In this document: positions 9,268 through 61,670 of the stretch, piece after piece
Position numbering within the stretch: position 1 is the first letter of the stretch
Layout of the letters: the number at the start of each line of letters is the position of its first letter
Virus record (IMG/VR): IMGVR_UViG_3300037010_001573
Coordinates: 1-64,000 of that record
DNA: 64,000 nucleotides
Reading direction: 5' to 3' (one strand)
Source: a virus
Taxonomy: Duplodnaviria > Heunggongvirae > Uroviricota > Caudoviricetes
The notes under the pieces: generated by a model
Seen by the model: the letters and a program-made list of their open reading frames with translations, nothing else
Told to the model about the DNA's origin: nothing
The model's database searches: none
Made by a program: the position numbers and the translations under genes

Positions 9268-9270
9268 AAC

Positions 9271-42313: not shown

Positions 42314-42393
42314 ATATAGATTACAGCCGGTTTTCATATCCGTTCTGTAGAAACCTAATTCTACTGCTTTGCTATAAGCTAACTGTAATTTTG

Positions 42394-42809: not shown

Positions 42810-42879
42810 AGCTTGTGTAAGAATCGAACTTACTCTATTGGGGTTGCAATCCAACCGGCCTCCAAGACCAAACAAGCCA
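42810..42879 (-). tRNA. tRNA, anticodon unresolved (possibly TGC)
   Basis: acceptor GGCTTGT/ACAAGCT, T-arm GTAAGTTCGATTCTTAC; 70 nt. Confidence 0.35.
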
Positions 42880-43267: not shown

Positions 43268-43957
43268 CTAATATCCAAATATTTTATTAGATTTTTTTAA
43301 ATTATCTTTTTTCCATAGAGGTTGATAATTACTATAATGATTTAGCCTTATTATATCTTCCTCAGTTTGAGCTGAGGAGATTGGCATTTTATGATCCAAT
43401 TCCCATTGACCGTAGTTATGAATAGTCATACCTTCTTGAAAGAGGTTCTGAATATGTTCAGTGAATTCTAACAAAATACATCCTAATATTTCTTCAGTTC
43501 CTATACTTTTCCTATAAGTACCGTTGCAGCTTCTTTTAAATGAACCTCTTATTAAACTTCTAGTATTACATATAAGTTTATAAATTGGATCTACCTCTTT
43601 CCTACTTTTATGATATTGGTTATAGTATTCAGGATTTCTTTCAACCCATTTACTTTTCTTTTCTCTAGGCTTTTTAATAACCTCTTTTTTAGGTCTAGGA
43701 TGAGTTTTATAATATTCAATATGGTAGGCTTTTACTTGTTCTTTATTTTGTTGATACCTATTTTTATCATACTCTTTTTGCCTGTCCCTATTAGCATCTC
43801 TATAATTTTCTCCATATTTTTGTAGAGACTCTTTATTGTCTTCTTTCCATTTTGCAGTTTCTATTTTTCTACAAGCTCTACAGGTATAGTCATAGTTATT
43901 AAATACAGATTTTGATATATTAATTCCTACTTCTAACTCTACTTTACACTTTATACA
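43268..43957 (-). pseudogene. HNH endonuclease with an in-frame TAA at codon 3 and no other start
   Basis: ATG AAA TAA then an open frame CIKCKVELE...YTCRAC (zinc ribbon) ... WELDHKMPIS...NYQPLW...N..K (HNH) with no further stops. Confidence 0.5.
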
Positions 43958-44103
43958 TTATTTCATATTAAAATAAAAGGAGAAATTAAAGGTAACACAT
44001 GGTACGTGTTAAGCTCTAAAATCTCCTATAATGCTTTTATTGAACATTACCATTGTTCATTTAATATAAATATCACAAAATATAGGAAACCTTAATATAT
44101 TCT

Positions 44104-44610
44104 TTAAAAGAATAGGAATTTTTCCCACTCTATAGGTACATAGTTTAAGGTTTTTAAGAGCATCAAGTAGTGAGGTCTTTTTGGTTCTACTATTTCTTTA
44201 CCATATTCCTCAAGTGTTAAATCTGCTTTTTGTGAATTGCAACTTCTACAAGCTGTTACCAAATTATCCCATGTATCTTTTCCTCCTTTTGATTGAGGTA
44301 TAACATGATCTAATGTTAGAAATTTTTGATTACTACTTCCACAATAAACACATTCAAAATTATCACGTCTGTATACGTTTTCTCTTGTTAGAGGAACTTT
44401 TTGAATATTTTGTTTTACATATTTAAAAACTCTAATAATAGAAGGTTTAAATATTTGTAATTCAGGATTTACCAAACCAAACGTTTCGGGGTGATCTGCT
44501 ACAACCTCAGCATTGCCTTTATATGAAATCACGAATGCTCTTTCAGTACTGATGATGCTCCTCGCCATAAAGCTAGAATCCACTACTAATGTTTTCTGAT
44601 ATTTACCCAT
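44104..44610 (-). CDS. HNH endonuclease
   Basis: CVYCGSSNQ...LTLDHVIPQSKGGKDTWDNLVTACRSCNSQK. Confidence 0.7.
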   Translation of the reverse strand: MGKYQKTLVVDSSFMARSIISTERAFVISYKGNAEVVADHPETFGLVNPELQIFKPSIIRVFKYVKQNIQKVPLTRENVYRRDNFECVYCGSSNQKFLTLDHVIPQSKGGKDTWDNLVTACRSCNSQKADLTLEEYGKEIVEPKRPHYLMLLKTLNYVPIEWEKFLFF

Positions 44611-44614
44611 GATA

Positions 44615-45010
44615 ACTTATTTTAAATGAAACCATTTATTTTTTATGTTGAAAACAATCCTTATAAAACTCAGGAATGTTTTTCTTTAACCAACTCATAG
44701 CAGCATATAAAGTTAAACCTAAATGTTTTCCTAATTTAACCCCCCAACCACTAGAACCAAAATCTATGTTTGACTCTTTTATATCTTGTATTCTTTTTTC
44801 AAAAATCTCTTTATGAGAGGTTTTATACCTAGGTGATTTTGGTTCAATTTGAGGTAAATTATAAAACGAATCTAAATCATTTACTTTAATAAGTTTGTGA
44901 ACCCTTTTATAGTTTCCTCCAGAATTTGATAGATTTAAATTTATTAATACTTGATTTATATTAATACAATTTTTTAATTGTTCTAGTATTTCATCATCTG
45001 TTATTTGTTT
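44615..45010 (-). pseudogene. remnant of the 46957-type homing endonuclease lacking the HNH core
   Basis: translation LNLSNSGGNYKRVHKLIKVNDLDSFY...NIDFGSSGWGVKLGKHLGL fuses the family N- and C-domains with no HNH between them. Confidence 0.4.
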
Positions 45011-45068
45011 TTTTATTATTATATTTTTCTAAATATACGAACTTCTAGTTTTATTAGTAGTTTTAATT

Positions 45069-45142
45069 GTAGTCTTAGAGAGACTCGAACTCCCACATCT
45101 CTTGATCCGTATTCAAGTGTTTTTCCAATTAAACTATAAGAC
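45069..45142 (-). tRNA. tRNA-Arg (ACG)
   Basis: acceptor GGTCTTA/TAAGACT, D-stem GTTT/AAAC, anticodon stem CTTGA/TCAAG with loop ATACGGA. Confidence 0.65.
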
Positions 45143-45147
45143 CCATT

Positions 45148-45252
45148 AAAATTAAAGGCAGGATTCGAACCTGCAAGGTATAACCACTAAAACGTGGAGA
45201 TGGAGGTTAATTCCTCTTTTACAATACCAACCTGTGAGTGTTTACCAATTCC
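45148..45252 (-). tRNA. tRNA-like element with paired ends ATTAAAG/CTTTAAT, too long (105 nt), unresolved
   Basis: T-arm GCAGGTTCGAATCCTGC; contains AGTGGT motifs. Confidence 0.25.
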
Positions 45253-45256
45253 ACCA

Positions 45257-45336
45257 CTTTAATTTTGTATCCCTGACAGGAGTCGAACCTGCAAGCCTAA
45301 GCATTTGGGCTTAAACCAAACGTGTTTTCCATTTCA
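45257..45336 (-). tRNA. tRNA-Leu (TAA), type II
   Basis: acceptor ATCCCTG/CAGGGAT, anticodon stem TTTGG/CCAAA with loop TTTAAGC, extended variable arm. Confidence 0.55.
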
Positions 45337-45432
45337 CCACAGGGATGTTTAAGGTGAGAAACCTTTATGTTGTGATAATTTCAACTATTATCCTTCATAC
45401 TTCTTCCTTTCTCAAGGGAACAACACATTTGG

Positions 45433-45505
45433 GTGTAAGACGGGGATCGAACCCGCAATCGCTTGGACCACAACCAAGTGCTTTACCATTCAGCTACGAA
45501 CACCA
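45433..45505 (-). tRNA. tRNA-His (GTG) with G-1:C73
   Basis: anticodon stem CTTGG/CCAAG with loop TTGTGGT; 8-bp acceptor with extra 5' G. Confidence 0.55.
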
Positions 45506-45562
45506 TGTAACGATTTATAAGGTCAAATCGTAAACCAGGACCTTCTCCCTTGGGAGATGCAG

Positions 45563-45631
45563 TACCGAGTGTTGGATTCGAACCAACCTAAGGGCGGATA
45601 TGAGCCATCCTTGATCCCAAGCTCCCTCGAT
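45563..45631 (-). tRNA. tRNA-like with CAT anticodon and extended anticodon stem
   Basis: loop CTCATAT, T-arm GTTGGTTCGAATCCAAC. Confidence 0.3.
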
Positions 45632-45759
45632 AGTATGATAAGAACCCGGAAAACTTATCGGTGTGCTTATGATTTTAAAGTGTCTTACCACAGGGCTCCG
45701 AACGCACATTCTACTCTTGTATTGCTTAGATACATTATGAGGACGGGGAACAGGTTTTG

Positions 45760-45844
45760 TAGAGAGAGGAGGTATCGAACCCCATGCGAATAAACGCACA
45801 CACTGTTTAGCAAACAGGTCTAACACCTAGTTAGTACACTCTCC
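45760..45844 (-). tRNA. tRNA-Ser (GCT), type II
   Basis: D-stem CTAA/TTAG, anticodon loop TTGCTAA, long variable arm, T-loop TTCGATA. Confidence 0.55.
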
Positions 45845-45944
45845 ATATAAATTAAATTATGAAGTTGGACTTTACAGCAAGTTCGACATATTAGCCGGAC
45901 CATCATGCCAGCGTTCTTATCCTTAGTCTACTTAATTTAATTTG

Positions 45945-46019
45945 TACTCATAGCTGGATTTGAACCAGCGACTTTCATCTTATCAGGATGCTTATCTACC
46001 GGGCTGATATATATGAGTA
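45945..46019 (-). tRNA. tRNA-Ile (GAT)
   Basis: acceptor ACTCATA/TATGAGT, D-stem TATC/GATA, anticodon loop CTGATAA. Confidence 0.7.
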
Positions 46020-46085
46020 TTTATTACTAAAGCAGGTAGTCCTCCTGCTAATATTTTATTACGGTCGTCATTTCCTGACACCAGG

Positions 46086-46691
46086 TCACTTTTTATTTAT
46101 TTTAGTAATTTCTTTTAATCTGAAATGTTCTTCTCTATGACAATTAGCACATAATAATAAACATTTGTCTGCTTCTAACTTCATCCTATCAAATGAATAG
46201 GAGTGGGAACTTATATTGAAATCTTTTTTAGTTGGATCTTTATGATGAAATTCTAAAGCATTATTACATTTGCTGTATCCACAAAATTCACATTTCCCTC
46301 CTTTATAACCTATCAAAATTTCTTTCTTTTCCTTCTTCCAATTTATTACAGCTAAACTTTTATTTCTACTATCATTTATTTTGGTAAAATTTCCATATAA
46401 ACCTTCTTTTTCTAATAAATTCCTTAATGTCCATTTACTGAATTCATTAAATTTTAGAGAGGTTAAATGAAGGTTTCCATTATTTGTTTTATAGAAATCT
46501 AATATATTAGCAACGATATTATCAGTAAAATCTCTTTTATATTTATTTTGTAAAATCTCTTCAGTATTTTTTAAATGATAACCTACTGTTCCTTTCCCTA
46601 AATTTAGAGATCTACATATTTCAGGAATATTCATTCCACTTTTTTTCAAATATCTAACTTTTTGTTTTGTTGATAATTCTTTACATTCCAT
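46086..46691 (-). CDS. HNH endonuclease
   Basis: CEFCGY...LEFHHKDPTKK...LLCANCH. Confidence 0.65.
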   Translation of the reverse strand: MECKELSTKQKVRYLKKSGMNIPEICRSLNLGKGTVGYHLKNTEEILQNKYKRDFTDNIVANILDFYKTNNGNLHLTSLKFNEFSKWTLRNLLEKEGLYGNFTKINDSRNKSLAVINWKKEKKEILIGYKGGKCEFCGYSKCNNALEFHHKDPTKKDFNISSHSYSFDRMKLEADKCLLLCANCHREEHFRLKEITKINKK

Positions 46692-46748
46692 AATATTATT
46701 TATATATAAATATATCGAACTATCCTAAAAATTAAGGAAAAGATTAAG

Positions 46749-46820
46749 CTGCTCCCCAGAGAATCGAACTCTGATAATTTGATTAACAGTCAAACGTAAT
46801 AGCCTTTATACGAGAGAGCA
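46749..46820 (-). tRNA. tRNA-Asn (GTT)
   Basis: acceptor TGCTCTC/GGGAGCA, anticodon stem TTTGA/TCAAA with loop CTGTTAA. Confidence 0.65.
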
Positions 46821-46956
46821 ATTTTATTTGTCTTTCCAAATTGTCAACCAGAGCTACAGTGAACGTCTTCTATGTATTATTTTCATAGTTGGGTTTCTCG
46901 TGGGGACTCTCGGTTACGATCCGAGCTCTTTGGTACTTCCCGCTCTACCATTGGAG

Positions 46957-47634
46957 CTATAGGTACATTTTGTTTTGTGTTAATAGATGAGGATAATTTT
47001 GTTTAACTAATTTTAAACTCCATTGAGGTGATTTATTTAGTAATTTAGCAACTTTAACCCCCCATTTACCTTTTGAAAAATCTATATTTGATTTTAATAT
47101 ATTTTCTACATTATCAAATTCAATTTTTTCTTTTATTTGTTTTTCTATTTTTTTTCTTTTATTTAAACTATTTCCTCTATTTCTTCCAGAAAATGTATTA
47201 GTTTGTGAATGACAATTAGGACAAATAATTCTTAAATTATATATATTATTATTTAAACTATTTCCATCAATATGATCTAATTGTAAATTTATTAATTTCC
47301 CATTCCATTCATTTTTTAACCCACAACATTCACAAGAATCTTTTTTAATATTTTCTTTAATAAGTATATTTTTTATATGAGTATTACTCATTATTTTCTT
47401 ATTATTTAATTTAAAAATATCTTCAAATAAATATTTTCGTCCTTGTGATGGGTTCAATCGTTTACAAAATTCAGATCTTGATATAAAATGAGAAGTATCT
47501 AAATTATGTTTTATAATTTCTCTTTTTAATTTATTGTAATTACCACCACTTGTGTTAAAACCTAAATATTGTAAAACTCCTGCTTTTGATTCACTATTTT
47601 TTATAGCAAATTCTAATGTTTTTTTGTCCCACAT
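46957..47634 (-). CDS. HNH homing endonuclease (intact member of the family with NxSGGNY N-domain and NIDFSKGKWG C-domain)
   Basis: CECCGL...LDHIDGNSLNN...ICPNCH. Confidence 0.65.
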   Translation of the reverse strand: MWDKKTLEFAIKNSESKAGVLQYLGFNTSGGNYNKLKREIIKHNLDTSHFISRSEFCKRLNPSQGRKYLFEDIFKLNNKKIMSNTHIKNILIKENIKKDSCECCGLKNEWNGKLINLQLDHIDGNSLNNNIYNLRIICPNCHSQTNTFSGRNRGNSLNKRKKIEKQIKEKIEFDNVENILKSNIDFSKGKWGVKVAKLLNKSPQWSLKLVKQNYPHLLTQNKMYL

Positions 47635-47714
47635 AATATTATATTTATAATAAATACATGGAAATGAACTAAAAATGTAACTTCCTTAAAAAGAAATACT
47701 ATCACGTTCATTTG

Positions 47715-47788
47715 TGGAAACGGTAGGATTTGAACCTACGACCCTTTCCTCTTCAGGGAACCACTCTACCAAACTGAGTTACGAATCC
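47715..47788 (-). tRNA. tRNA-Phe (GAA)
   Basis: D-arm ACTC/GAGT, anticodon loop CTGAAGA, T-arm GTAGGTTCAAATCCTAC. Confidence 0.6.
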
Positions 47789-47832
47789 AATTTCTAGATT
47801 TTAATTATTCCCTGATCTAGAACAGGCCTATG

Positions 47833-48111
47833 TTATTTTCTAGAGTATTTTTTAACATCTTCTTTAGTACGCCCAAACCAATGTTTTGGTTCTTCATCAC
47901 CCCAATAAGGACGAGATTCTTGAATTAACCACCACCAATCACAATAATCATAATCATTGCGTATTTCTTTTGGGTGTTTAAAGTTAAAATCTTCATTCCA
48001 AAATGTACAACTCTTAATCTGTTGTTTCCATATTCTACGAATAGGACTCCAATACTCTCTTGTTGTCATTCCCTTATCTTTAATATAAGGTTTTTTTCTA
48101 CTTTTTGACAT
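47833..48111 (-). CDS. hypothetical protein
   Basis: ORF track. Confidence 0.4.
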   Translation of the reverse strand: MSKSRKKPYIKDKGMTTREYWSPIRRIWKQQIKSCTFWNEDFNFKHPKEIRNDYDYCDWWWLIQESRPYWGDEEPKHWFGRTKEDVKKYSRK

Positions 48112-48172
48112 TTTTCTAAGTTATATAATATTACTTAGAAGACCGAATGTTTCATACTAACAAATTTATTTG

Positions 48173-48253
48173 TGGGTAACAGTGGACTCGAACCACTCCC
48201 GTGAGGACCTGTTTTACAGACAGGCTGCCGTATCCGAACGACTTTTGCGACCC
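48173..48253 (-). tRNA. tRNA-Tyr (GTA), type II
   Basis: anticodon stem CCTGT/ACAGG with loop CTGTAAA, variable hairpin CTCACGGGAG. Confidence 0.55.
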
Positions 48254-48294
48254 AATTACACTTCCTTCTTGGAGTATAGTGTGAACTCATCTTG

Positions 48295-48365
48295 TACCTC
48301 GTAGTGGAATCGAACCACTGCCAATTGCATGTAAAACAATTACGCTTCCATTACGCCAACGAGGT
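48295..48365 (-). tRNA. tRNA-Val (TAC)
   Basis: acceptor ACCTCGT/ACGAGGT, anticodon loop TTTACAT. Confidence 0.65.
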
Positions 48366-48416
48366 ATGACGGTATCGGTATTTTTTAGTAGGTCCTATAC
48401 CATGTAACTACTATTG

Positions 48417-48487
48417 TACCCCTCTCAGGTAATGATCCTGATTCCCGATATTAAAAGTATCGTGCTTCACCTTAAAGCTTGAAGGGC
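48417..48487 (-). tRNA. tRNA-Lys (TTT) with non-canonical T-loop ATCATTA
   Basis: D-stem GCTT/AAGC, anticodon stem CGATA/TATCG with loop CTTTTAA. Confidence 0.55.
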
Positions 48488-48541
48488 AAAATCTAATTCT
48501 ACGCTCGACGTTCTTGGCCTCTATGAATTAGTAACAGTCTT

Positions 48542-48616
48542 TGGTCGGGTAGACAAGAGTTGCACTTGCCTCCTCTCGCGTCCAAGGCGAGCTTCTCACT
48601 CCGAGAATACTACCCG
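48542..48616 (-). tRNA. tRNA-Pro (TGG) with genomically encoded CCA and T-loop TGCAACT
   Basis: acceptor CGGGTAG/CTACCCG, D-stem TTCT/AGAA, anticodon stem CTCGC/GCGAG with loop CTTGGAC. Confidence 0.65.
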
Positions 48617-48624
48617 TTTAAATA

Positions 48625-49069
48625 TTCCTTTAATTCTATATTTTTATTTCTTTCTAAAAAATGAAAATCTCTATGACAATTAGAACATAATAAAATACAT
48701 TTACTGGCTTCATTATATGCTTTTTTTTATTGCATTTTCCCCGAATCCACTATAACTTAAAATATCTCCTATTATTGCTTCTTTTTCATTTTTATCTTTA
48801 TGGTGAAAATCTAACAAATGTTCTCTACTTTCAGAACATTTTTTACATTTACCCCCTAATGATAATCTAATTTCTGATATTATCGTTTTTATTTTTTCGT
48901 TTTTATTTTTATTTCCTTCTTTCCATATTGAAGGGTTTTCTGTGATCCATTTCTTATCACTTACTTTTTTACATTTTTTACAATATTTTTGCATCCCATC
49001 AGGTTGAGATTTGTTTTTTGTAAATTCATATAAATTCTTTTCTATTTTACATTTGGCACATTTTTTCAT
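48625..49069 (-). CDS. small HNH endonuclease, C-terminus restored by removing one A from an A8 run (~48722-48729)
   Basis: LDFHHKDKNEK... then, after correction, KKAYNEASKCILLCSNCHRDFH. Confidence 0.45.
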
Positions 49070-49121
49070 AATATATGTTTATTACAAATATGTGTCTTAT
49101 CTAGAGACTCGAAATTATTTG

Positions 49122-49193
49122 TTACCCCTAATGGAATCGAACCAATCCCGCATGGACCAAAACCATGTGTACTAACCAATATACGAAGGGGCA
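49122..49193 (-). tRNA. tRNA-Gln (TTG)
   Basis: anticodon stem CATGG/CCATG with loop TTTTGGT, T-loop TTCGATT. Confidence 0.5.
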
Positions 49194-49924: not shown

Positions 49925-50137
49925 CTAAATTACTTCAATTATACTTGAGGCACTACATGATTTAATCTCAAAATTAGTTTCACCTCGGTCAGTCAAATGT
50001 TTGGTTGTTTTAACTTCTGAATCTGTTACAGATACGGCTTCTACTAAATAATTCTCTTTTTGTGTCTTCATTTTCCCCGTTTTTTCATCTTCGGTTAAAA
50101 ACTCTACTTTAACTGTGTAAAAATTTGTTTGTGTCAT
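49925..50137 (-). CDS. hypothetical protein
   Basis: ORF track. Confidence 0.35.
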   Translation of the reverse strand: MTQTNFYTVKVEFLTEDEKTGKMKTQKENYLVEAVSVTDSEVKTTKHLTDRGETNFEIKSCSASSIIEVI

Positions 50138-50160: not shown

Positions 50161-50814
50161 TTATTTTAAATATGCTATAAATTCAGAACCTGGTTCTTTG
50201 TCTTCTTCTTTATTCCACAGCCCCAATGATTTTAAATTTTCTATTTGTTCTTGATCTAATTCCCAATCATATGTTTGAGTTGCTGCATTCATTGTATTAT
50301 CTTCTATTTGTCTCATTTGACCTTGTGTTAAAGGATCAGCGACATATAAAAAATAACAATTATAACATTGTAATTCTAAATTATTTAATATATAATTAGT
50401 TTTATTCCCGTCTTTAAAATGAAGAAGTAAAGGTGTTTTGTAATCTGTTAGTCTACGTTCATGAAAACCGCATGTGTAACATTCATCTTTTAAAAAAGCT
50501 TCTGCTATTCCCCGTTCTTTTATTTTGGTAGGAGTAAAAGATTCAAATCCTGTTCCTTCTGTAAATATTCGTTTAACATTAGGTTCTTTTCGTTTATTTG
50601 GGAGAAATTTGGGAATACCACGTCCTGATGGATTTAAATGAGCTTCAAATAAAGTCGGTGAGTCTATATCATTTTCATCTACCCTATATAATTTAGCCCA
50701 CGGTTTATAATGTTGATACGAGCAACCTAAATACCTAGCAGCCGATCTATTTGATTTAGTGCGATTCATCGCTACCAATATCATTTCTTTACTTAATGGT
50801 TTCGCTTTTGGCAT
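50161..50814 (-). CDS. HTH plus HNH-like endonuclease
   Basis: N-terminal HTH-like RSAARYLGCSYQHY; CYTCGFHE...HFKDGNKTN...LQCYNCY. Confidence 0.45.
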   Translation of the reverse strand: MPKAKPLSKEMILVAMNRTKSNRSAARYLGCSYQHYKPWAKLYRVDENDIDSPTLFEAHLNPSGRGIPKFLPNKRKEPNVKRIFTEGTGFESFTPTKIKERGIAEAFLKDECYTCGFHERRLTDYKTPLLLHFKDGNKTNYILNNLELQCYNCYFLYVADPLTQGQMRQIEDNTMNAATQTYDWELDQEQIENLKSLGLWNKEEDKEPGSEFIAYLK

Positions 50815-50815
50815 T

Positions 50816-51966
50816 TTACTTTTTTAATTCTGATTCAATTTTATCAACTAAAAACCACAAATCATCAACGTCATGTAATATAATATCTTTCCCATTAATA
50901 TCTAAAATAGGATTAATAGAACCATCCGGATTTATCCTATCATATAAATAAAATAAAATTAATTCTGTTGATTCAACACTAAAATGTAAATGAAAAAGAC
51001 TATCTATTATTCTGTAAAAAGATTCATCATATTTCGCTGTATTAAAACCATAATCTAGTTCTAACATAACACCTCGATGTATTATGTGTTCTAATAAATT
51101 TATTGTTGTTACAAAAATATTTTTTTGAATATCTTCTTTAGTCTTTTTTTTATGTTTTAGACTACTATTCGTCTTTAATATTAAGTTTATTTGTTTTTGT
51201 AACTTTTCTATATGATCTTGTTGATCCATAACTTTCTATCGATTTGATTATTTCTTGAATAACAATACATGTTTCGTATTTTTCTTGTCCCACATAATAA
51301 GATTCAGCTGCTTCCAATGCTGTTTTCCAATTTTCTTTAGATAAAGAAAGAATATTACCTGTAAGATTTAATTCTACAATATCTGCTGTTTTTTTACGAG
51401 CTCGTTGTGCTTCTTTAATACCTAATATCAAATTCATAAAGATCATGTTTTGTATCTGAGGATTATCAGGTATTTTATTAAAATCAGATTCTTGATTGAC
51501 AATTATAGATAAATTCGGTATATTTTTTCTATCCATGTTATATTTCAGGAGGTGTATTATTCTGATTAGGATTTTGTGTTCCTCCTTCTAAAATAGATTT
51601 TATTAATAATTTAATATTACTTAATCTAATTAAAAAACCAATTACATTTTCATAAGGGACATCTAAATCAACATCAACACTCATCATATGGGGTGTTAAA
51701 CCAGCATTTAATTTTGTCTTTAATTTTTGTGTTAATTCTTCTTTTTGTGTTATTGTATATCCTTTAGGCAATACAAATTGTACTTTAACTCCTTTTTTAG
51801 TTGGGTTAGGATTAACATCTACTTTTAGAAGAGGGGTATTTGGGTTACTCATTTGATTATCCTGAGATTGAGCAACATCGTTTTGTTGTATGTTGTCATT
51901 ATGGTTCTCATCAGCTTCACACAGCAACATTAATTCTTCTATTATACTTAATTTATTTTTACTCAT
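50816..51966 (-). CDS. three hypothetical genes (50816..51229, 51165..51536, 51538..51966)
   Basis: ORF track; the first two overlap by 65 nt. Confidence 0.35.
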
Positions 51967-53113
51967 TATTTATTTTAGATATAAATATTAACTCATTTTG
52001 GTATTCTGTTAGTGCATTTATGGTAATTTTGAAAATATCAACGGTAAATGTACCAATTTCTCCACTTTCTTTAATAATATTCGGTAACTGAGTAATTATA
52101 TTAAAAGAATCTGAGGAAGCCAAACTTACATCGAATTCTACTATTATATCATTTTCTATTAAAGGGTCATTATAACCTATATTAAATATACGTTTATTTA
52201 AATCAAAATCAGTATATTTCTGTTCATGATCTATGTAATGAGATGTTATTACTTTCATATCATCATCAATGTATATTCTATCACACCATGGCTCCAAAGA
52301 AGCCAAAGCAATTGAATTACATTTTTTGACAACAAACGCTATATTATATTTAACATCACATGATTTACTCCCCCATTTGCGAAAAAAATTTCGATTTGAA
52401 TGAAGTTCTATTTGTTGTGTTTTCGATTGATATTCTTCTGAAAATCTAGATGTTTTGCTAACAAAATGGTAACAAATAGCATCTAAAGAAGTAAATAAAT
52501 TTAAACCATATAATTTAAAACGTTTTATTAAATCATCATCTTCACAAAACATCGGGTTAAATAGACTATCTAAACCACCTATTTCTATTAATTTTGCTTT
52601 AGGGGAACACATAAAAAAAGTAACACCAGGTTCGATTTTATCTTTATTTATTTGACATTCATTAAATGAAAACTCCCTAAATTTAATTTTATCAAAACTA
52701 TCTAAATCTGTACCAAAATCACGTATAATTTTACCAGGGCGTTCATGTCCCGAAAATATAGGAGGTTCAACTGTTGTATATGAAACAATATTGTTAACTC
52801 CCATATGTTTTTCTATATTTTCAATGAAACCTGGAGATAGAATGATATCGTTATGGAGATATATAACATATTCTTTTGAAGATAATTCAGTAGCTTTATT
52901 GAATGTATCTGAAAATGTTTTATTTTCATTTGAGTAAAAATATTTTAAATTTTTATCATTTAAAGAATCTAACCATTCGTGGGTTCCGTCATTAGAACCA
53001 TAACTAACAAAACATATCTCTATTTCAGGATATAATTCTCTAGTTGTGTTATAAAAACTTTTATTATATTCTAAATTATTTTTTAAACCTACTAAAAGTG
53101 ATATATTATTCAT
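51959..53113 (-). CDS. glycosyltransferase family 2-like (N-terminal GT-A domain) with C-terminal extension
   Basis: YGSNDGT...YLHNDI motifs. Confidence 0.5.
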   Translation of the reverse strand: MNNISLLVGLKNNLEYNKSFYNTTRELYPEIEICFVSYGSNDGTHEWLDSLNDKNLKYFYSNENKTFSDTFNKATELSSKEYVIYLHNDIILSPGFIENIEKHMGVNNIVSYTTVEPPIFSGHERPGKIIRDFGTDLDSFDKIKFREFSFNECQINKDKIEPGVTFFMCSPKAKLIEIGGLDSLFNPMFCEDDDLIKRFKLYGLNLFTSLDAICYHFVSKTSRFSEEYQSKTQQIELHSNRNFFRKWGSKSCDVKYNIAFVVKKCNSIALASLEPWCDRIYIDDDMKVITSHYIDHEQKYTDFDLNKRIFNIGYNDPLIENDIIVEFDVSLASSDSFNIITQLPNIIKESGEIGTFTVDIFKITINALTEYQNELIFISKINNE

Positions 53114-53969
53114 TTATTAAAATTTTATTATATAAACTATAATGTTGTTTCGCAACAAAGTTTCGTTTAAAGCGTTCTATTTTAGGTGGGTTTTTTAACT
53201 GTATGTCTAATATATCACCATAAGCATTTACATAATATATATAACTAGGAATACCACACATCCATCCTTCTATTGTTGTTCTTCCTCCAATACCTACTGT
53301 AAAATCAGCGTTTTTTAAATATTCTTCTGTATTATAACATTGATCATTGACTTGAATAAGATCATGTATAAAATCGCATTTACTTCGTGAAATAATCGTG
53401 AGTTTTATATTATCTTTAATACATTCTCCTATAATATGTTTTATCATGGGTAAACGCAAAGAATCATTAATTTCACCTATCAAAACCCCATTTATATTGT
53501 TTCTATGTGTTTGGTATTTTTTAAAACGAGTATCATCAATTGGGTTATAAAACAAAGAAATATTTTTAGTTTTTATATTATGTTGGTTTTTTAGACAACG
53601 GTATATATCAGGTTGGACAGCTATGTAATGTTTTATAGAATCATGTTTGATTACTTCTTCACTACGTAAAACTGAGTGTATAATGGATATTTTTGGTATA
53701 TCCTTAAAACGATTGCATAAAAAGACAGTTGGGTCCGGTTGAGATCCTATTATTAAATCAAAATCATCAGGTAAATTTAACATATTTGTGATTTTTATAC
53801 CCTGTTCTTGTAGATTTTGATATAAAAAAAAAGTTAAATCGGGTTCAGTATATGTAGCAAATATAATGTTTAAGTCTTTAAATTGAGAAAGCCCCATAAG
53901 TAATTCATAATGGTACAACTCACTACCACCCAAACCATTCATATTTAAACAATATACCAATATTTTCAT
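53106..53969 (-). CDS. putative glycosyltransferase (GT-B-like)
   Basis: operon context and NMNGLGGSELYHYEL N-terminus; weak. Confidence 0.4.
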   Translation of the reverse strand: MKILVYCLNMNGLGGSELYHYELLMGLSQFKDLNIIFATYTEPDLTFFLYQNLQEQGIKITNMLNLPDDFDLIIGSQPDPTVFLCNRFKDIPKISIIHSVLRSEEVIKHDSIKHYIAVQPDIYRCLKNQHNIKTKNISLFYNPIDDTRFKKYQTHRNNINGVLIGEINDSLRLPMIKHIIGECIKDNIKLTIISRSKCDFIHDLIQVNDQCYNTEEYLKNADFTVGIGGRTTIEGWMCGIPSYIYYVNAYGDILDIQLKNPPKIERFKRNFVAKQHYSLYNKILINE

Positions 53970-54493
53970 CTTGTTATGTTTTTACCTAATTCTCTAACAG
54001 GAACACCAACATATTTGTGATCCGGTTTTAAAATACTCTTTTTCCCTACAAAACTGCTAGCCCCTATCATACATCCTTCAGGAACATTTATCTTTTGATG
54101 GATTACAGCATTTAATCCTACGTTTGTTTTATTCCCTATTTCAGAATGACCTCCTACTTTTACACCACATGATAAAATAACATCATTGTGTAATACAACA
54201 TCATGCCCAACATGTGAATGTTTCATTAAATAGCAATTTTCCCCAATAGTTGTCGTTCTTTCAACACCAGAATCTATAGTTACTAATCCCGTTATTCTTG
54301 TATTCTTCTTTATTAATACCCCTTGATTTATATGTTCTTTACCTTTCCACTCAGCCGGGTAACCAATAACACAATGTGGGCCTATATATACTCCTTCTTC
54401 TATTTCCACTTTAGGACCAATAACAGCTGTAGGATGAATAAAAATTTCTCCAAAATTAATAGAGGGTTCCATATATGGTGTTAGGTCTTCCAT
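53966..54493 (-). CDS. hexapeptide-repeat (LbH) acyl/acetyltransferase
   Basis: repeated [LIV]G-x-x-x-x hexapeptides (IGPHCVIG, VGHDVVLHNDVILSCGVKVGGHSEIG). Confidence 0.65.
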   Translation of the reverse strand: MEDLTPYMEPSINFGEIFIHPTAVIGPKVEIEEGVYIGPHCVIGYPAEWKGKEHINQGVLIKKNTRITGLVTIDSGVERTTTIGENCYLMKHSHVGHDVVLHNDVILSCGVKVGGHSEIGNKTNVGLNAVIHQKINVPEGCMIGASSFVGKKSILKPDHKYVGVPVRELGKNITR

Positions 54494-54495
54494 AA

Positions 54496-55116
54496 TTATA
54501 ATGTTTCGTAATATTTATTTTGTTTTTCTTGTCTTTCAATTGTTTTAGGGTGGTATAGGTTATAATATTCTTTTGCGGCTAATGTAGAATATGATTTAAA
54601 CCCATCCAATCTTTCATGAACTTTATTTATCCATTTTATTTCAGAACAATTTCGATAGATTCTCCATTGGTAATCTGGGAAGTTTATCCATCCTTGTTCA
54701 TTTACATTCCACCCCCATTTGTTAACATGTTGTTGTGTTAATCCATCTACAGTATTAATTCTAGGAACAAGAATTACGTCGATTTCAGGATTTTCATGTA
54801 GTATAAAAGGTAAATGTTCTAAAAGAATTTTATTCGGAATTTCATCTGCATCTATTTGGAATATGTATTCTCCTTTACATAAAAGATTTAATTTATTTTT
54901 CCAATCAGCAAAATGTCCTGTAAAGTTGTCTTTTGCTACAAAAACATTTGATAATTTATCTAATCCTTCTATATAGTTGTAAACTTCTTTACTTCCATAA
55001 AGATCATATAATATTACTATTTCGTCTTGTTCTCGTTTATTAGAAAGGAGGAAAGAAACTAAACGTTTAATTTCCTCCAATTCATTACAAACAGTTATTG
55101 CATAACTTATTCTCAT
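54496..55116 (-). CDS. glycosyltransferase family 2
   Basis: ITVCNE...QIDADE (DxD) motif. Confidence 0.65.
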   Translation of the reverse strand: MRISYAITVCNELEEIKRLVSFLLSNKREQDEIVILYDLYGSKEVYNYIEGLDKLSNVFVAKDNFTGHFADWKNKLNLLCKGEYIFQIDADEIPNKILLEHLPFILHENPEIDVILVPRINTVDGLTQQHVNKWGWNVNEQGWINFPDYQWRIYRNCSEIKWINKVHERLDGFKSYSTLAAKEYYNLYHPKTIERQEKQNKYYETL

Positions 55117-55119
55117 TTT

Positions 55120-55551
55120 TTAAAGTGAATTTAATGTAGTAACAGCTAAAGCAAATTCTTCTCTAGGAAAATTACGTACATTTTTTAAATCAACTTTATA
55201 TTTTTGGTTTTTTGGGAAACGAGCTTTTTCCTGTTTTGAAATGGGGATCAATGAAGCTACTGACCAACCCCAGGTGTTACTTCCACTTCCATTAGGAAAT
55301 AATATCCCCTTTTCGGGTACGTTTATAGTGCTCGGATACCAAACAAAACCATCAGAATCTGTAAATTCTAGATCTTTAATCAATTCAGGAAGAACCTCTC
55401 GAGATGCTTTTACGAAATCACTATCTTTCACCATATGTGATGTACTTCCATAACCACAATTAAAACACATCCACTGGATGTATTGGGGATTGTGATATTC
55501 ATAACACATTTCGGATTCACAGTGTTGGCATTTTACTAAATTATCTGTCAT
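55120..55551 (-). CDS. zinc-ribbon protein
   Basis: CQHCES...CFNCG. Confidence 0.35.
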   Translation of the reverse strand: MTDNLVKCQHCESEMCYEYHNPQYIQWMCFNCGYGSTSHMVKDSDFVKASREVLPELIKDLEFTDSDGFVWYPSTINVPEKGILFPNGSGSNTWGWSVASLIPISKQEKARFPKNQKYKVDLKNVRNFPREEFALAVTTLNSL

Positions 55552-55603
55552 TTTTATCTTATTTTATTAAATATAATAAATTTTTCTTATATTACCAAAA
55601 AAA

Positions 55604-56905
55604 TTAATTATCTATTTTTACTAATTTAGGAAGAATTAAATCTACATGTTTGGGAAATCTAGGAACATGTTTATCAAGCAAAATATTTAAAGATTTAGTC
55701 ATCATATCTAATGAGAAATTTTGTCTATTTCTAACAGCTAATCTTTTTGCTTTTTCCTGGTATATTTTATATCTATTAACAACATCATTCAGAGCATGTC
55801 CTATCTGATTATCATCCGGTTTAAACCATTGAGATTCTTTTAATATGACATTAGGAACATAAGCACTTTGATGAACATTTGTTAAAGTACCACCTATTAG
55901 ACCAGCAAATTCAGCATTTAAAAAATCCAAATGTCCACTCCACCCAGATGCTATTATTGGTTTTCCGATAGCACTGAATTCTAATAAAGGACGTCCAAAA
56001 CCTTCACCTTTTGTGAAATTAAGCATTACTTTTATCTTTGGGTGATTGTATATTGAATTTATTTCTTTATCGCTTAAATCGCCGTGTATTACGTAAATAT
56101 TCGGGAGTTCGTTACCAGATACAGTTTTTCTGATGTCTTCTATTTTTCTTAATATTTTTTCTTTATCCAATACCGAAGTAGCACCTTGTGATACTTTCAA
56201 TACTAAAGCGGGTTTAGATTTGCTATTTTTAAAAGTTTCTAAAAATGCTTTTATCAAATAACCAACATTCTTCCTATCTTCACCAAAATCTCCTTGAAGC
56301 CAATGTCCTACAAATAAAAAACAAAATGTTTCTGGGATTGTATCTAGGTTTTTATAAACATCATAATCAAACTTATCTGAAGATTTAAAATATTTATCTA
56401 AATCAACACCTTCAAATAATATTTCAACTGGTTTCTTAATTGCTATAGACGCTACTAATTGACCCGCTTGGTTTTTTTGTTCGAATTTACTAGATTCAAA
56501 TACTTTTTTAGAATGATCAGACGATGTTAAAATTAAATCCATTCTATTACAACCATCAACCCATGATGGGTCGCATAATGTAGTTTCTATACCGGCCGTA
56601 ACACCAATGTTGTATTTTCCTACAGATTGGAATTCATTAGGGACTGATATTTGTATCCATATATCGGGCCTTGCTGGAAGATTCATTGTAACTGTACCTA
56701 TTATTCTATCTTTTATATCTTTTTCTTCGGGTATGTCTTTATTTAAAGCTCCAAAAGGAGTCTGCCCCCATCGTTGAGATAATACTTTTATATCCCATTC
56801 TTCTCCTTTTGATCTAATAAGAGATCTTAAAAAATCTCGTGAACGGGCACCATACCCACTTATTGTATCAGCTGGGCAGCTTACAATACATAACGGTTTA
56901 ATCAT
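55604..56905 (-). CDS. glycosyltransferase family 4 (GT-B)
   Basis: GEGFGRPLLEFSAIGKPIIAS motif. Confidence 0.65.
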   Translation of the reverse strand: MIKPLCIVSCPADTISGYGARSRDFLRSLIRSKGEEWDIKVLSQRWGQTPFGALNKDIPEEKDIKDRIIGTVTMNLPARPDIWIQISVPNEFQSVGKYNIGVTAGIETTLCDPSWVDGCNRMDLILTSSDHSKKVFESSKFEQKNQAGQLVASIAIKKPVEILFEGVDLDKYFKSSDKFDYDVYKNLDTIPETFCFLFVGHWLQGDFGEDRKNVGYLIKAFLETFKNSKSKPALVLKVSQGATSVLDKEKILRKIEDIRKTVSGNELPNIYVIHGDLSDKEINSIYNHPKIKVMLNFTKGEGFGRPLLEFSAIGKPIIASGWSGHLDFLNAEFAGLIGGTLTNVHQSAYVPNVILKESQWFKPDDNQIGHALNDVVNRYKIYQEKAKRLAVRNRQNFSLDMMTKSLNILLDKHVPRFPKHVDLILPKLVKIDN

Positions 56906-58257
56906 ATTGAAATTATATGTTTATTTTGTTTTGCTAATTTATTTTCTATTTTAAAAAAATCATGTGATTTTCTAGGAATCCAAGTATTAAATGTTTTATC
57001 TACACATGATATAACATTTTTAGCCATATTTTTAGAAGTCATCATAGCTTCATCTGATAAAACCCACTGACGTGCCAAATCTCCACGACGTGTTCTTTCC
57101 TCTTTACCTAGATAATATACATTTCTTATCTGAACAGCCACATCTCTGAAATCAGCTCTATCATCAAATATATAAGGTGTAGGGATTGATCCTATTAAAC
57201 TCATATTACTAGGAAAGACAGGAAACGCCCAATCTCCACAATCTTTATATTTTCCAAAATGATTAGAACCAAATTCTTCAGTAAAATTAATCCAATTACC
57301 ATTTTCATCAGTAAAACGCATTTGATCTTGCATACCACCAGTAACATTTGCTATAATAGGTTTAGCACACATCATTGCTTCTGTTAAAGATAAACCCCAC
57401 CCTTCATTAGAAGATATCAAGATGCCAGCATCAGCACAATTGTATAATAAATTCATTTGTTCTGGTGTGAATCTATTTAATCCTGTTATGAAAATATTAG
57501 GAGTGTTATTTCCCCAAATCATTTCTATAACCGCGGGTATATCTGTACCATTTTCGTCTAATGGTTGTGTGTGTGCTATTAAAGCTACTTTATCTTTTTC
57601 ATCTTCATTAAGAGAATCAACAAACATTTTCCATGATAATAAAACATCAGGAAATGATTTTCTTCGAATATTTCTAGAATTATATATTAAAACAAATTCA
57701 TATTGTTTCCCATTAAAAATTTGTTTTTTAAATAATTGTAAATCATTCCACTTTTCATCTCCTTCTTTAATAGGAAAGAAAATATCCTCATTAATACCAT
57801 GGGGGACATATTCGATGACTTTGTTATTGGCATCATCCCCTAAAACAACTTGATTAATGTTTTTAGTTTGTTTGGATATAGCCATTAACAAATCACAAGA
57901 ATTGTAATATTCTTTGTTATATAGGGGATATGGTAAAGAATCCCATATATTTAAATAAAAAATAGGAATTTGCGATCTAATTTCTCGTTCATGTATCCAT
58001 AACCATTCCCAATATCTAGGATCAGTAAATAATAAAATAGCATCTGGTTTCTCAATAGAGATTAATTCTCTAATTTTTTCAATAGTACCATATCCAGATG
58101 AAGGGTACAAAGTTACATTAGCATCTTCTATACCATTAAATTTATTAGAATCAGCACTTAAATCAAATCGCTTTCCTTCATCTGGGTTATTTATTGTTGC
58201 CCCTAAATTTACCCAATTGAAATGATGACATGTCCCTAAAACTATCTCTCGGGCCAT
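56902..58257 (-). CDS. glycosyltransferase family 4 (GT-B)
   Basis: SSNEGWGLSLTEAMMCAKPIIA motif. Confidence 0.65.
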   Translation of the reverse strand: MAREIVLGTCHHFNWVNLGATINNPDEGKRFDLSADSNKFNGIEDANVTLYPSSGYGTIEKIRELISIEKPDAILLFTDPRYWEWLWIHEREIRSQIPIFYLNIWDSLPYPLYNKEYYNSCDLLMAISKQTKNINQVVLGDDANNKVIEYVPHGINEDIFFPIKEGDEKWNDLQLFKKQIFNGKQYEFVLIYNSRNIRRKSFPDVLLSWKMFVDSLNEDEKDKVALIAHTQPLDENGTDIPAVIEMIWGNNTPNIFITGLNRFTPEQMNLLYNCADAGILISSNEGWGLSLTEAMMCAKPIIANVTGGMQDQMRFTDENGNWINFTEEFGSNHFGKYKDCGDWAFPVFPSNMSLIGSIPTPYIFDDRADFRDVAVQIRNVYYLGKEERTRRGDLARQWVLSDEAMMTSKNMAKNVISCVDKTFNTWIPRKSHDFFKIENKLAKQNKHIISI

Positions 58258-58366
58258 TGTTGCTATTCCGCTTGTTGTTCTAATTTTTAGATGTCGTCAC
58301 AGAGAAGAAGGATTTTTTTCCTTTTACTCTTCTCAATGTGACGACATTCAGGTGTTTGTTTGTTCA

Positions 58367-59090
58367 TATTGCTTTATTTAAAATATTTTTTATATTTTGG
58401 TTATATTTTATTCTTATTAATTTAATATTATTTTTTAAACAATATTCATCTTTAATTTTATCATTATTTTGAATATACAAAAATGTTCTTTCTCCTCCAA
58501 ATTTTTCTATAGGTTTGTAATGTTGTTCTCCATCAAATTCTATATATATTTTATATATAGGTAAATAAAAATCAAAAGGTAGTTTTCTTATATTTATACA
58601 ATCACTAAAAACATATTGATGGATATAACTAATATTATTTTGTTTTAAATATTCTATTATGTTGTTTTCTCCTTTTGATATTTTACATTTAGGACATCCC
58701 TGTTTTTGTTTTAAATGTCCTTTAGATGACTGTAGAAATAATCCATGTTTTTACATATAATTTTAAGCTTACTTACCATATTAAAGTAAATCGAGTTAGA
58801 ATAATCATATTTATCTCCATGGATGTTCTTAGCTCTTAATATAAATTCATTTTTATCATTAACCAAACTACCCCACCCAGAACATATTTTACATCCAAAA
58901 CCATTTAAACGATCATTGGGTTTTTGCCAAAATGTATGGTTTCTATTACATATAATCTCCACAGGAGTTTTGACATTTATATATTCTGTTAGAGAATAGT
59001 CATATTTATCTCCATGTTTTTTATTGCATCTTTTATAAAATCTAATGTATTTTTTCTCTTCATATTCTTGAATTTTTAGAATGGTTTTAT
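58367..59090 (-). pseudogene. homing-endonuclease-like gene (two zinc-ribbon/HGDKYDYS repeats plus Vsr-like PD-(D/E)xK C-domain) broken by two frameshifts
   Basis: ATG AAG AGA AAA AA-T...; adding one A to the A6 run gives MKRKKYIRFYKRCNKKHGDKYDYS...HGDKYDYS...HLKDI; the C-domain ...GCPKC...LPFDFYLPIYKIYIEFDGEQHY sits in a third frame. Confidence 0.45.
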
Positions 59091-59377
59091 TCTAATATCA
59101 TCAGTAAATATGAATAAATAATTAAATACTACCGCTTAATACCAAATCATTATGGTTGTGTATTTGTTTACGAAACGCGTCATCATTGATATAAAGATGC
59201 ATTGCTCGGTTTGTTAATTTTTGTAAATTAAATTTATTTTTAATACTTGCGACTTTAAAGTCATCGAATAATTCTTCATGTACTTTTACACTTGTAAGAA
59301 TCAATTTGTCATTTTTACTTGCCATAATTTATATTTTATATTTTATATATATATAAATATATGTATTTTTATAAAAA

Positions 59378-60944: not shown

Positions 60945-61670
60945 TTATTTAATTTTTAGTATTTGTGAAATAAAAGCCATAAAATTCAATTCTCTATCAG
61001 CGATAGAGTTATTCTGCCACATGTATTGTGCACCGTGTATAGCAATATCCGCATGGGATGTACTAAATTCTGAAGCACGCTCATACAATCCTGTATATAA
61101 AGGAATAAAATCATTTACATCTGAATCAACTATTTTTTGACGAATGTCAACCCAAGCCGTTTTTGGTTTTGATTTTAATATAACAATAGTATCATTTAAT
61201 ACATCATTTATATTAACAATTAATGTTTTAACATCCAATGTGTTTTTATCGTCAATACATTGTTGTGTAACATTTATTATCTTTCTAATATCAGGGTAAT
61301 ATGAACGTACTATACTTGCTAATTCGGGTAATTGAAAATTAATATCTTCATTTTCTAATATATCAGCAACATGTTTTGCCACTTCTCCCTTTGTAGGAGG
61401 TTCAATATGAAAAGCCTGACATCTACTTATTAAAGGTTCAATTATACGTTCCGCATAATTTGCAGTTAATATGAATCTGGTTTTAGCGGAGTAAGTTTCC
61501 ATAACATTACGTAAAGCAGCTTGTGCTTGAGATGTCATAAAATCACAATTGTGAGTAAGAATATTACCTTTACTTCCTATAAAAAAATTATGATTTTGTT
61601 CAACAGTTAAATCATATACTCTATGAGTTGTTTCTGTTTTCTTTATTGATTTGATTTTTAATATGTCCAT
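60945..61670 (-). CDS. split-intein C-half (41 aa) fused to the clamp-loader gp44 C-extein
   Basis: MDILKIKSIKKTETTHRVYDLTVEQNHNFFIGSKGNILTHN ends in HN then CDFMTSQAQAALRNVMETY...ILTAN...PLISRC, which matches T4 gp44. Confidence 0.7.
   Translation of the reverse strand: MDILKIKSIKKTETTHRVYDLTVEQNHNFFIGSKGNILTHNCDFMTSQAQAALRNVMETYSAKTRFILTANYAERIIEPLISRCQAFHIEPPTKGEVAKHVADILENEDINFQLPELASIVRSYYPDIRKIINVTQQCIDDKNTLDVKTLIVNINDVLNDTIVILKSKPKTAWVDIRQKIVDSDVNDFIPLYTGLYERASEFSTSHADIAIHGAQYMWQNNSIADRELNFMAFISQILKIK

Follow-up and report, generated by a model that had tools for sequence, protein, structure and literature searches.

What does a phage do with a row of genes for sugar-transferring enzymes, and which molecule receives the sugars? 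This question is raised by a stretch of 64,000 nucleotides from a tailed phage (Caudoviricetes; IMG/VR record IMGVR_UViG_3300037010_001573, positions 1 to 64,000), which will be referred to as the window and which covers 64 kb of a genome of about 162 kb. Sugar clusters have been noted in large aquatic phages since the first cyanomyovirus genomes, and their targets were never established. An earlier note on this DNA had described seven contiguous, mostly overlapping genes, here named O1 to O7, as a single glycosylation cluster, and all seven were indeed located exactly between positions 51959 and 58257 on the minus strand (Table 1). Nevertheless, they do not form one unit but consist of a conserved four-gene core (O7-O6-O5-O4) and a three-gene, strain-specific cassette (O3-O2-O1).

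This division is clearly demonstrated by comparison with 78 IMG/VR loci and several further contigs, altogether about 80 contigs of related phages. The clamp loader, p72, the clamp-loader A subunit, a PD-(D/E)XK nuclease, p67, O7, O6, O5 and O4 keep this order in every locus, even where identity falls to 45%. Among the loci reaching far enough, O6 was present in 60 of 60, O5 in 49 of 49 and O4 in 35 of 36, and the O7 open reading frame (ORF) was found in 72 related loci with a median identity of 51%. The core glycosyltransferases (GTs) are better conserved (median identities of 50-58%) than the nuclease (44%) and the clamp loader (41%). Past O4, gene content is a mosaic that differs by genome: the 215 proteins encoded there fell into 88 clusters, and the 11 genomes of the window's own clade show eight cassette architectures. 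The cassettes of relatives, with 8-10 further genes, code for 4,6-dehydratases/epimerases, DegT aminotransferases, sugar methyltransferases, PglD-like and GNAT acetyltransferases, a nucleotidyltransferase and extra GT2 enzymes. At 2.5 kb, the window's cassette is the shortest among the loci compared. A size beyond that of the T-even systems, on which the earlier note had remarked, is not unusual in view of these relatives and of the 13 GTs published for cyanomyoviruses (PMC12801897). The commonest cassette family (246 amino acids (aa); 19 loci, for example L074 6986-7723) gave no Pfam or PHROG match and is absent from the window.

The island lacks membrane components as well. No transmembrane helix was predicted in O1 to O7, and among the 215 cassette proteins four contain one marginal hydrophobic stretch and none is polytopic; the island therefore holds no membrane enzymes for export or initiation. 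In agreement with this, no flippase (Wzx), polymerase (Wzy), phosphoglycosyl transferase (PGT), oligosaccharyltransferase, ligase, ABC transporter or Gtr-type protein was found in the window or in the approximately 30 cassettes examined, and a GtrB-like PHROG match reached only E 0.0084. The membrane components typical of O-antigen, capsule and Gtr systems are thus absent.

The island is phage DNA, neither prophage nor host cargo, because its composition, strand bias and synteny are all phage-like: the G+C content of the window is uniform (26-34%) and that of the island (26-31%) matches the remainder, 65 of the 68 window ORFs of at least 100 aa share one strand, and about 80 phage contigs, together with Flavobacterium phage immuto, show synteny at the locus. 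Host O-antigen genes in a prophage, a possibility raised in the earlier note, were ruled out on these grounds; 20 tRNAs and the replication genes nearby likewise speak for a phage context, and no lysogeny signs were seen in the window. The exact O7 sequence was found on a contig of 161,676 bp. Its metagenomic homologues number more than 8000, many of them on contigs of 150-172 kb. An uncultured 484-kb phage also carries an O7 homologue. Among cultured phages, only immuto (61% identity) and Microcystis phage Mel-JY01 carry an O7 homologue, RM378 and TJE1 having more distant ones; tblastn with O7 matched immuto, Mel-JY01, LR756508, RM378 and TJE1 only.

As the earlier note had recognised, the neighbours are homing-endonuclease and replication genes and not structural ones; we found the clamp loader, the PD-(D/E)XK nuclease, HNH and DUF723-type endonucleases and a tRNA array, the window carrying 20 tRNA genes, with four queuosine-type tRNAs in the array. 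The window also codes for a ligase, ThyA and several homing endonucleases. Junctions between O1 and O7 are overlaps of 4-8 nt or spacers of 2-3 nt, with a 52-nt gap between O6 and O5 as the sole exception. Searches of Pfam, PHROG and PADLOC gave no match for p67, whose pattern in our view resembles ribbon-helix-helix proteins. In promoter and terminator scans, promoter-like sites were rarer than in shuffled sequence, and tRNAs were the only matches of an Rfam scan. Homologues of the distal HNH gene occur at or near the distal cassette end in loci L029, L064, L073 and L074, and immuto has an HNH gene just past its cassette; HNH (distal) and DUF723 (proximal) homing endonuclease genes thus lie at or near both island edges in several genomes. 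Endonucleases bracketing the island in this way may promote cassette exchange.

Table 1. Features of the glycosylation island and of the remaining window (positions in the window)
Feature	Position	Strand	Remarks
O1	51959-53113	minus	384 aa
O2	53106-53969	minus	287 aa
O3	53966-54493	minus	175 aa
O4	54496-55116	minus	206 aa
O5	55120-55551	minus	143 aa
O6	55604-56905	minus	433 aa
O7	56902-58257	minus	451 aa
8-nt insert TAAAAATT	58282-58289	minus	splits O7 from its first 26 codons; stop first, Ile codon last
Detached O7 N-terminus, 26 codons (MNKQTPECRHIEKSKRKKILLLCDDI + TAA)	58287-58367	minus	encodes beta-strand 1; RKKILLLCDD block kept
Frameshifted remnant of a DUF723-type homing endonuclease, between p67 and O7	58364-59091	minus	two open stretches in different frames
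p67	59122-59325	minus	67 aa; directly upstream of O7 in all loci; 79 loci, median identity 52%
HNH endonuclease gene near the distal island edge	50161-50814	minus	phrog_14736 1.8e-7
DUF4494 gene	49925-50137		beside the tRNA array
Fractured clamp-loader ATPase gene	60945-63321	minus	single 303-aa ORF in relatives
First part of fractured gene	62680-63321	minus	AAA domain and intein N-terminal splicing region
Endonuclease ORF within fractured gene	61621-62646	minus	separate ORF, 341 aa; phrog_15427 4.5e-18
Last part of fractured gene	60945-61670	minus	opens with intein C-terminus (...ILTHN, then C), followed by remaining clamp loader
RNA-maintenance neighbourhood	35562-36302, 38341-39882, 41064-49193	minus	Ro60/TROVE protein (513 aa), CCA-adding/poly(A)-polymerase-family nucleotidyltransferase, 20-tRNA array
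HNH-type endonuclease genes interspersed there	40246-40692, 44104-44610, 46957-47634, 48713-49069		
Rfam tRNA matches uncalled by ARAGORN	41368-41435, 45150-45263	minus	second match 114 nt
WGR-PARP protein	24063-25265	minus	400 aa; WGR (PF05406 6.9e-6), PARP catalytic domain (PF00644 1e-18)
SPFH/Band-7 gene	3531-4376	minus	
YqeY-like gene	5970-6428	minus	
ATP-dependent DNA ligase	8146-9267	minus	
ThyA	18868-19887	minus	339 aa

The family assignments made previously were confirmed, by Pfam matches above the cut-offs for O1, O3, O4, O6 and O7 and by fold for O2. O7 (PF00534, 37.3 bits, cut-off 26.4; phrog_2170, 4e-19) and O6 (PF00534, 29 bits; phrog_2170, 7e-15) both carry the reported E-x7-E motif in the C-terminal Rossmann domain (EGWGLSLTE at residue 285 and EGFGRPLLE at residue 301, respectively) and are core GT4-type glycosyltransferases of the GT-B fold. 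They share 27% identity across the donor domain, O6 being a distant paralogue of O7. The family profile of O7 best matched the chlorovirus GT B736L (3.5e-10), and that of O6 matched B736L only.

O4 combines a PF00535 match (31.1 bits, cut-off 23.3) with the DxD motif noted before, which reads DAD at residue 89, and is a GT2 enzyme with a median identity of 58% across loci. Its family profile best matched GmaR (6.5e-9), spanning the whole GT domain of this protein, followed by SunS (2.5e-5), and the motifs IDADE, R-IYKN...HE, LYH and Q-K-N are shared. Single-sequence PDB searches with O1 and O4 yielded nothing significant; the family profile of O4 alone proved informative. The zinc-ribbon description of O5 holds for its N-terminal Cys-knuckle region, in which two CxxC knuckles (CQHC and CFNC) precede an alpha/beta domain, but the protein is an orphan belonging to no described family. 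Its structure was predicted confidently using a narrower alignment, and no structural relatives of the model were found. Possibly, though this is speculative, O5 is a partner of the core GTs or targets O4 to its substrate. Two observations on relatives concern the same genes. The metagenomic protein P0435 (328 aa) is an in-frame fusion of an O5 homologue to the C-terminus of an O6 homologue, and the Mel-JY01 locus (L002 6608-10139) has homologues of O7, annotated as two coding sequences, of O6 and of O4 and no O5-family ORF.

In the cassette, O3 showed hexapeptide repeats (Hexapep, 62.2 bits, cut-off 27) and the sequence SHVGHDV, which we take to correspond to the catalytic H-x-x-H-D motif of LpxA. 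It matched LpxA (1e-26) and NeuD/PglB/VioB (4e-25), in both cases below the equivalog cut-offs (93.6 versus 226 and 88.6 versus 160.8 bits), lacks the C-terminal helical domain of LpxA and found its best PDB match in 8E62 (189 aa, 3.4e-37). O3 is accordingly predicted to be a short LpxA-like acyl/acetyltransferase of the left-handed beta-helix (LbH) type, equivalent to neither LpxA nor NeuD; identity to the LbH genes of other cassettes is 22-34%. The Pfam match of O2 was sub-threshold. Its AlphaFold model (predicted local distance difference test score 94) retrieved the GT4 enzymes MshA, BshA and PglA, all of GT-B fold, with Foldseek (E approximately 5e-11, TM-score approximately 0.7), and of the E-x7-E motif the second Glu only is kept (invariant E234); by this modelled fold, O2 is a compact GT-B (GT4-like) glycosyltransferase. 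It has 304 metagenomic relatives and no homologue in the 78 IMG/VR loci. O1 is a GT2 enzyme (PF00535, 48 bits, cut-off 23.3; PF10111, 32 bits; DDD at residue 192) followed by an uncharacterised C-terminal region of approximately 150 aa, with close homologues only in the three loci L029 (64%), immuto (gp169) and L033 (42%). Synthesis of an acylated oligosaccharide, which the earlier note had proposed as an acetylated one, is reasonable.

From this gene content and layout we infer which molecule receives the sugars, in what order the enzymes act and what role they play. The reading that we tentatively prefer, and that may well be correct, is that the island glycosylates a phage protein, which would probably be part of the virion. 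O4, perhaps guided to its substrate by O5, would place the first sugar on Ser/Thr or Cys of a phage-encoded protein in the cytoplasm, most likely a virion surface protein. O6 and O7 would extend a conserved inner core, to which the cassette enzymes would add, and acylate, strain-specific outer sugars taken from host nucleotide sugars; in the window, O3 would supply the acyl group. The outcome would be virions with a strain-variable oligosaccharide. The earlier note had left protein, DNA and host surface open as targets; a protein is favoured because the O4 profile best matches GmaR, the flagellin O-GlcNAc transferase of Listeria, and SunS, which S-glycosylates the sublancin peptide of the SPbeta prophage, both being soluble GT2 enzymes that act directly on protein or peptide. 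A set of GTs that is virus-encoded and entirely soluble, including a relative of such direct protein glycosyltransferases, is what the island contains. Furthermore, the O7-O6-O4 core is common to phages whose hosts belong to different phyla (immuto and Mel-JY01), and therefore an acceptor intrinsic to the phage fits better than a host envelope glycan. We also count as support that both GT4 family profiles best match a chlorovirus GT.

Several points weigh against protein glycosylation in the virion. Structural genes are absent nearby, but this distance is uninformative because Che8-type phages glycosylate their capsids with GT genes far from the structural genes. Expression may be mistimed for virion assembly, since the cluster lies in a replication/early-type block. 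The likeness to GmaR and SunS is at profile level, and O4 is without their tetratricopeptide repeat (TPR) substrate-recognition region. GT4 and GT2 enzymes devoid of transmembrane helices also use lipid-linked acceptors. Moreover, the island could be partly decayed here, given the interruption of O7 and a cassette devoid of a sugar-nucleotide pathway, and the analysis covered 64 kb of the approximately 162 kb of this genome.

The use of lipid-linked acceptors leads to the best-surviving alternative, which we regard as possible but rather unlikely, namely remodelling of the host envelope. Soluble GTs would then modify undecaprenyl-linked intermediates of the host (O-antigen, capsule or the general O-glycosylation of Bacteroidota), with initiation and export left to host enzymes, and the altered surface of the infected cell might serve superinfection exclusion or prevent re-adsorption of progeny to debris. 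The gene repertoire resembles O-antigen and capsule loci, PglA, a peripheral enzyme of the GT4/GT2 kind, is among the structural matches of O2, the early-type gene location suits host takeover, the cassettes are as hypervariable as serotype loci, and cyanomyovirus sugar clusters are usually interpreted in this way (PMC12801897). However, a PGT, Wzx, Wzy, ligase, ABC transporter or Gtr-type membrane protein is found neither in the window nor in the approximately 30 cassettes, the core is conserved across phages of Bacteroidota and Cyanobacteria although the envelope glycans of these hosts differ, direct protein glycosylation is the activity of the nearest relatives of O4 with a solved structure, and the window shows no signs of lysogeny.

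The possibility of decay requires a closer look at O7. The earlier note had taken it for a plain GT4 gene; the family is correct, but it was missed that the 451-aa ORF is the downstream portion of a gene that encodes 480 aa in relatives. At 81 loci O7 opens with a conserved 29-residue extension (...RKKILLLCDDIR.TSGIAT...), which represents beta-strand 1 and the Gly-loop of the GT-B N-domain. The N-terminal Rossmann domain is complete at these loci and incomplete in the window's ORF. The separating 8-nt insert is situated exactly between DDI and R, and skipping it would restore the ancestral O7 protein exactly. It is missing in six aligned relatives and present in L003, an independent assembly of the same genome. 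Inserts at the same position were detected in L088 (1-1150) and L025 (approximately 9150-10001) only, the latter belonging to a clade of approximately 59% identity; the remaining 81 loci of the survey have none. A further search for interrupted alleles returned only the L025 contig from IMG/VR and none from the metagenome collection, which does not contain the window's own contig. The protein P0036 ('451 aa') was rejected as an interrupted allele, its length merely reflecting the start chosen by the gene caller.

All three inserts (TAAAAATT, TGAGGATT and TGAAGATC) open with a stop codon and close with an Ile codon. The codon before the insert and the one closing it are ATC and ATT in the window, ATC and ATC in L025, and CTC and ATT in L088, so that in two of the three alleles a single tRNA reads both the ATC ahead of the insert and the Ile codon that closes it. 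Each allele can form the same 5-bp hairpin spanning the insert, in which one pair covaries (A-U, G.U, G-C), and the detached ORF of 26-27 codons is open in all three, its beta-strand 1 codons being conserved. Where translation could restart in the window, L025 lacks a start codon. Directly upstream of O7, where relatives have approximately 18 nt between p67 and O7, L088 contains an intact DUF723 endonuclease of 319 aa (PF05265; phrog_559, 1.9e-73), and L025 a different inserted gene. The N-terminal codons of the window's O7 are closer to those of L088 than to those of the window's nearest relatives, which suggests co-conversion during homing.

These features raise the possibility, in our judgement an unlikely one, that O7 is expressed by a programmed 8-nt hop installed by a homing-endonuclease cassette. 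The peptidyl-tRNA-Ile would leave ATC on meeting the hairpin-held stop codon and re-pair with the Ile codon closing the insert, and translation would restart at AGA to give the ancestral ...CDDI-RTTSG... sequence. Frameshifts restoring O7 were rejected, as a +2 shift encounters TAG and a -1 shift has no site for re-pairing. Alternatively, the product may be a truncated or a split enzyme, or the gene may be dead. The nearest precedent is the T4 mobA-gene 60 cassette, which, as Bonocora and coworkers reportedly described in 2011, joins a homing endonuclease to a translational bypass of 50 nt. There, too, a homing endonuclease gene adjoins a short non-coding insert in a neighbouring coding sequence, with a stop right after the take-off codon and a small hairpin, and take-off and landing codons match as they do in two of the three O7 alleles. 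Unlike in T4, the O7 insert measures 8 nt, one allele has mismatched codons, and another has a different gene upstream. If such a hop occurs, it would represent a new natural mobile element of the gene 60 type, endonuclease plus bypass, within a glycan island whose variable cassette would provide an abundant lineage of aquatic phages with virion sugars that vary like serotypes.

If O7 is not recoded, the island could be a decaying remnant in this genome, the insert inactivating O7 and the shrunken cassette making little or no glycan, which would be compatible with any acceptor in relatives. Barring recoding, O7 is without beta-strand 1 and the Gly-loop, the neighbouring homing endonuclease is itself frameshifted, and the cassette, the shortest of those compared, is without a sugar-nucleotide pathway. 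Nevertheless, the remaining 451 codons of O7 and the six other genes are intact, with 68-81% identity to close relatives, O2 and O1 have intact relatives elsewhere, and the same interruption occurs in two other, diverged genomes with both parts of the ORF open and the beta-strand 1 codons conserved. Decay is consequently considered improbable.

Even less probable is another intracellular acceptor, be it a small molecule or lipid (for example a glycolipid or a compatible solute), a protein of the host or a tRNA nucleoside that is modified. The GT4 relatives include the small-molecule enzymes MshA, BshA, TreT and sucrose-phosphate synthase, and the array of 20 tRNAs with its four queuosine-type members adjoins the cluster; yet a polymer exposed at a surface accounts better for five proteins of GT fold and for the hypervariable rare-sugar cassettes of relatives than would a metabolite or an RNA base, the window ORFs scanned include no 7-deazaguanine genes, and specific support is nil.

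Finally, DNA hypermodification, in which the GTs would build an oligosaccharide on a modified base as a defence against restriction, is the least plausible reading and very improbable. The cluster adjoins replication and nuclease genes, phage GT-A and GT-B enzymes are documented to make mono- to tri-saccharide glycans on DNA, thymidine in YerA41 bears an adduct of approximately 1 kDa that is apparently an oligosaccharide, and approximately 98 kb of the genome lie outside the window. All known phage DNA glycosylation, however, needs a hydroxylated pyrimidine, made by a ThyA homologue (N177D, L143D/E or D169N) or by a methyltransferase (MT) together with a TET-type dioxygenase. DNA is disfavoured because the ThyA of the window is canonical and the DNA of immuto has no glycosylated nucleoside. 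With 302 bits against the equivalog threshold of 108 (TIGR03284) and with L143, D169 and N177 kept, the window's ThyA is not a synthase of 5-hydroxymethylcytosine (hmC), 5-hydroxycytosine (5hoC) or 5-hydroxymethyluracil (hmU), and glycosylation based on these bases was ruled out in the window. No TET/JBP or C5-MT domain was detected in the 30 window ORFs Pfam-scanned outside the cluster, and sequence searches gave no match to T4 alpha- or beta-GT. Immuto shares the core and has a larger cassette, its annotation contains no hydroxylase, and liquid chromatography with UV detection and tandem mass spectrometry of its virion DNA revealed dA, dC, dT and, wholly replacing dG, non-glycosylated fdPreQ1 (PMC10516641), an analysis that could have missed minor or digestion-resistant species.

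The remaining window and the relatives offered further observations (Table 1). Immuto encodes a full pathway of 7-deazaguanine (fdPreQ1) DNA modification around a DUF4494 gene (L006 18607-37015); the window has a DUF4494 gene as well, and no Que, FolE or DpdA genes were seen in its 30 Pfam-scanned ORFs outside the cluster. The replicative polymerase belongs to family B in the window's lineage and to family A in immuto. The window's ThyA is of the long, canonical form, with an insertion typical of the Lactobacillus/Enterococcus-type enzyme. The architecture of the WGR protein is that of eukaryote-like poly(ADP-ribose) polymerases (PARP). The Rfam scan of the Ro60 neighbourhood gave no Y-RNA-like match, and the longer of the two tRNA matches uncalled by ARAGORN could represent a tRNA interrupted by an intron or insertion.

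Part of this was known before, as cyanomyovirus sugar clusters have been published and the immuto cluster is annotated in GenBank. The lineage is abundant and mostly uncultured, with thousands of metagenomic homologues, and its picture is now sharper and testable: a core conserved above the replication proteins, a swappable cassette resembling O-antigen loci, no export genes, O4 as candidate initiator, and DNA largely excluded as the acceptor. Immuto is in culture, and its homologues of O4 to O7 are gp178-gp181. If virion glycans are strain-variable, the idea of a glycan shield or serotype would extend from mycobacteriophages and giant viruses to environmental phages, which would matter for how readily particles adsorb, stick, are grazed upon and decay. 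Separately, the interrupted O7 allele may exemplify translational recoding, a rare event, in association with a mobile element.

Among known systems, the island can be compared with phage DNA glycosylation (T4 alpha/beta-GT, the arabinosyl-5hoC of RB69 and DLP3, and MT-5mYOX-GT systems). There, GT-A and GT-B enzymes likewise lie near DNA-metabolism genes, sometimes together with sugar epimerases, and the products are mono- to tri-saccharides, but an enzyme for a hydroxylated base was found neither among the scanned window ORFs nor in the immuto annotation. The likeness to GmaR and SunS is remote, as O4 consists of the catalytic domain alone, whereas these enzymes have C-terminal TPR or other substrate-recognition regions. 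The cyanomyoviruses P-SSM2, S-SCSM1 and S-SCSM2R carry sugar or 'cell-wall' clusters of untested role with many GTs and nucleotide-sugar epimerases (PMC12801897). They are likewise large aquatic myoviruses rich in GTs; however, tblastn detected no O7 homologue in them, and the gene families and the core arrangement are unlike those of the island.

In Che8-type mycobacteriophages, capsid proteins receive their glycans in the cytoplasm from GTs whose genes lie apart from the structural ones, as summarised in PMC11256854 with reference to Freeman et al. 2023. These are small temperate siphoviruses with two to three GTs and proven glycans, whereas the glycans of the island are predicted from its genes, and a layout with a conserved core plus a cassette is not known to have been described for them. 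The Megavirinae (Mimivirus, Moumouvirus and Megavirus) have clade-specific glycosylation clusters of 6-33 genes, and their fibril glycans have been demonstrated chemically (PMC10117803). As in the island, the enzymes are soluble and virus-encoded, the genomic position is fixed, the content varies with the lineage and export machinery is missing; 4,6-dehydratases, aminotransferases, acetyl- and methyltransferases, GT2 and GT-B enzymes occur in both, the product decorating the virion fibrils in the giant viruses. The phages differ in their bacterial host, in an acceptor deduced from the genes and in a conserved four-gene core that includes an orphan, and the likeness is one of logic and not of established homology. 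By this logic, the Megavirinae clusters appear to be the closest analogue of the island, followed by the virion glycosylation of the Che8-type phages.

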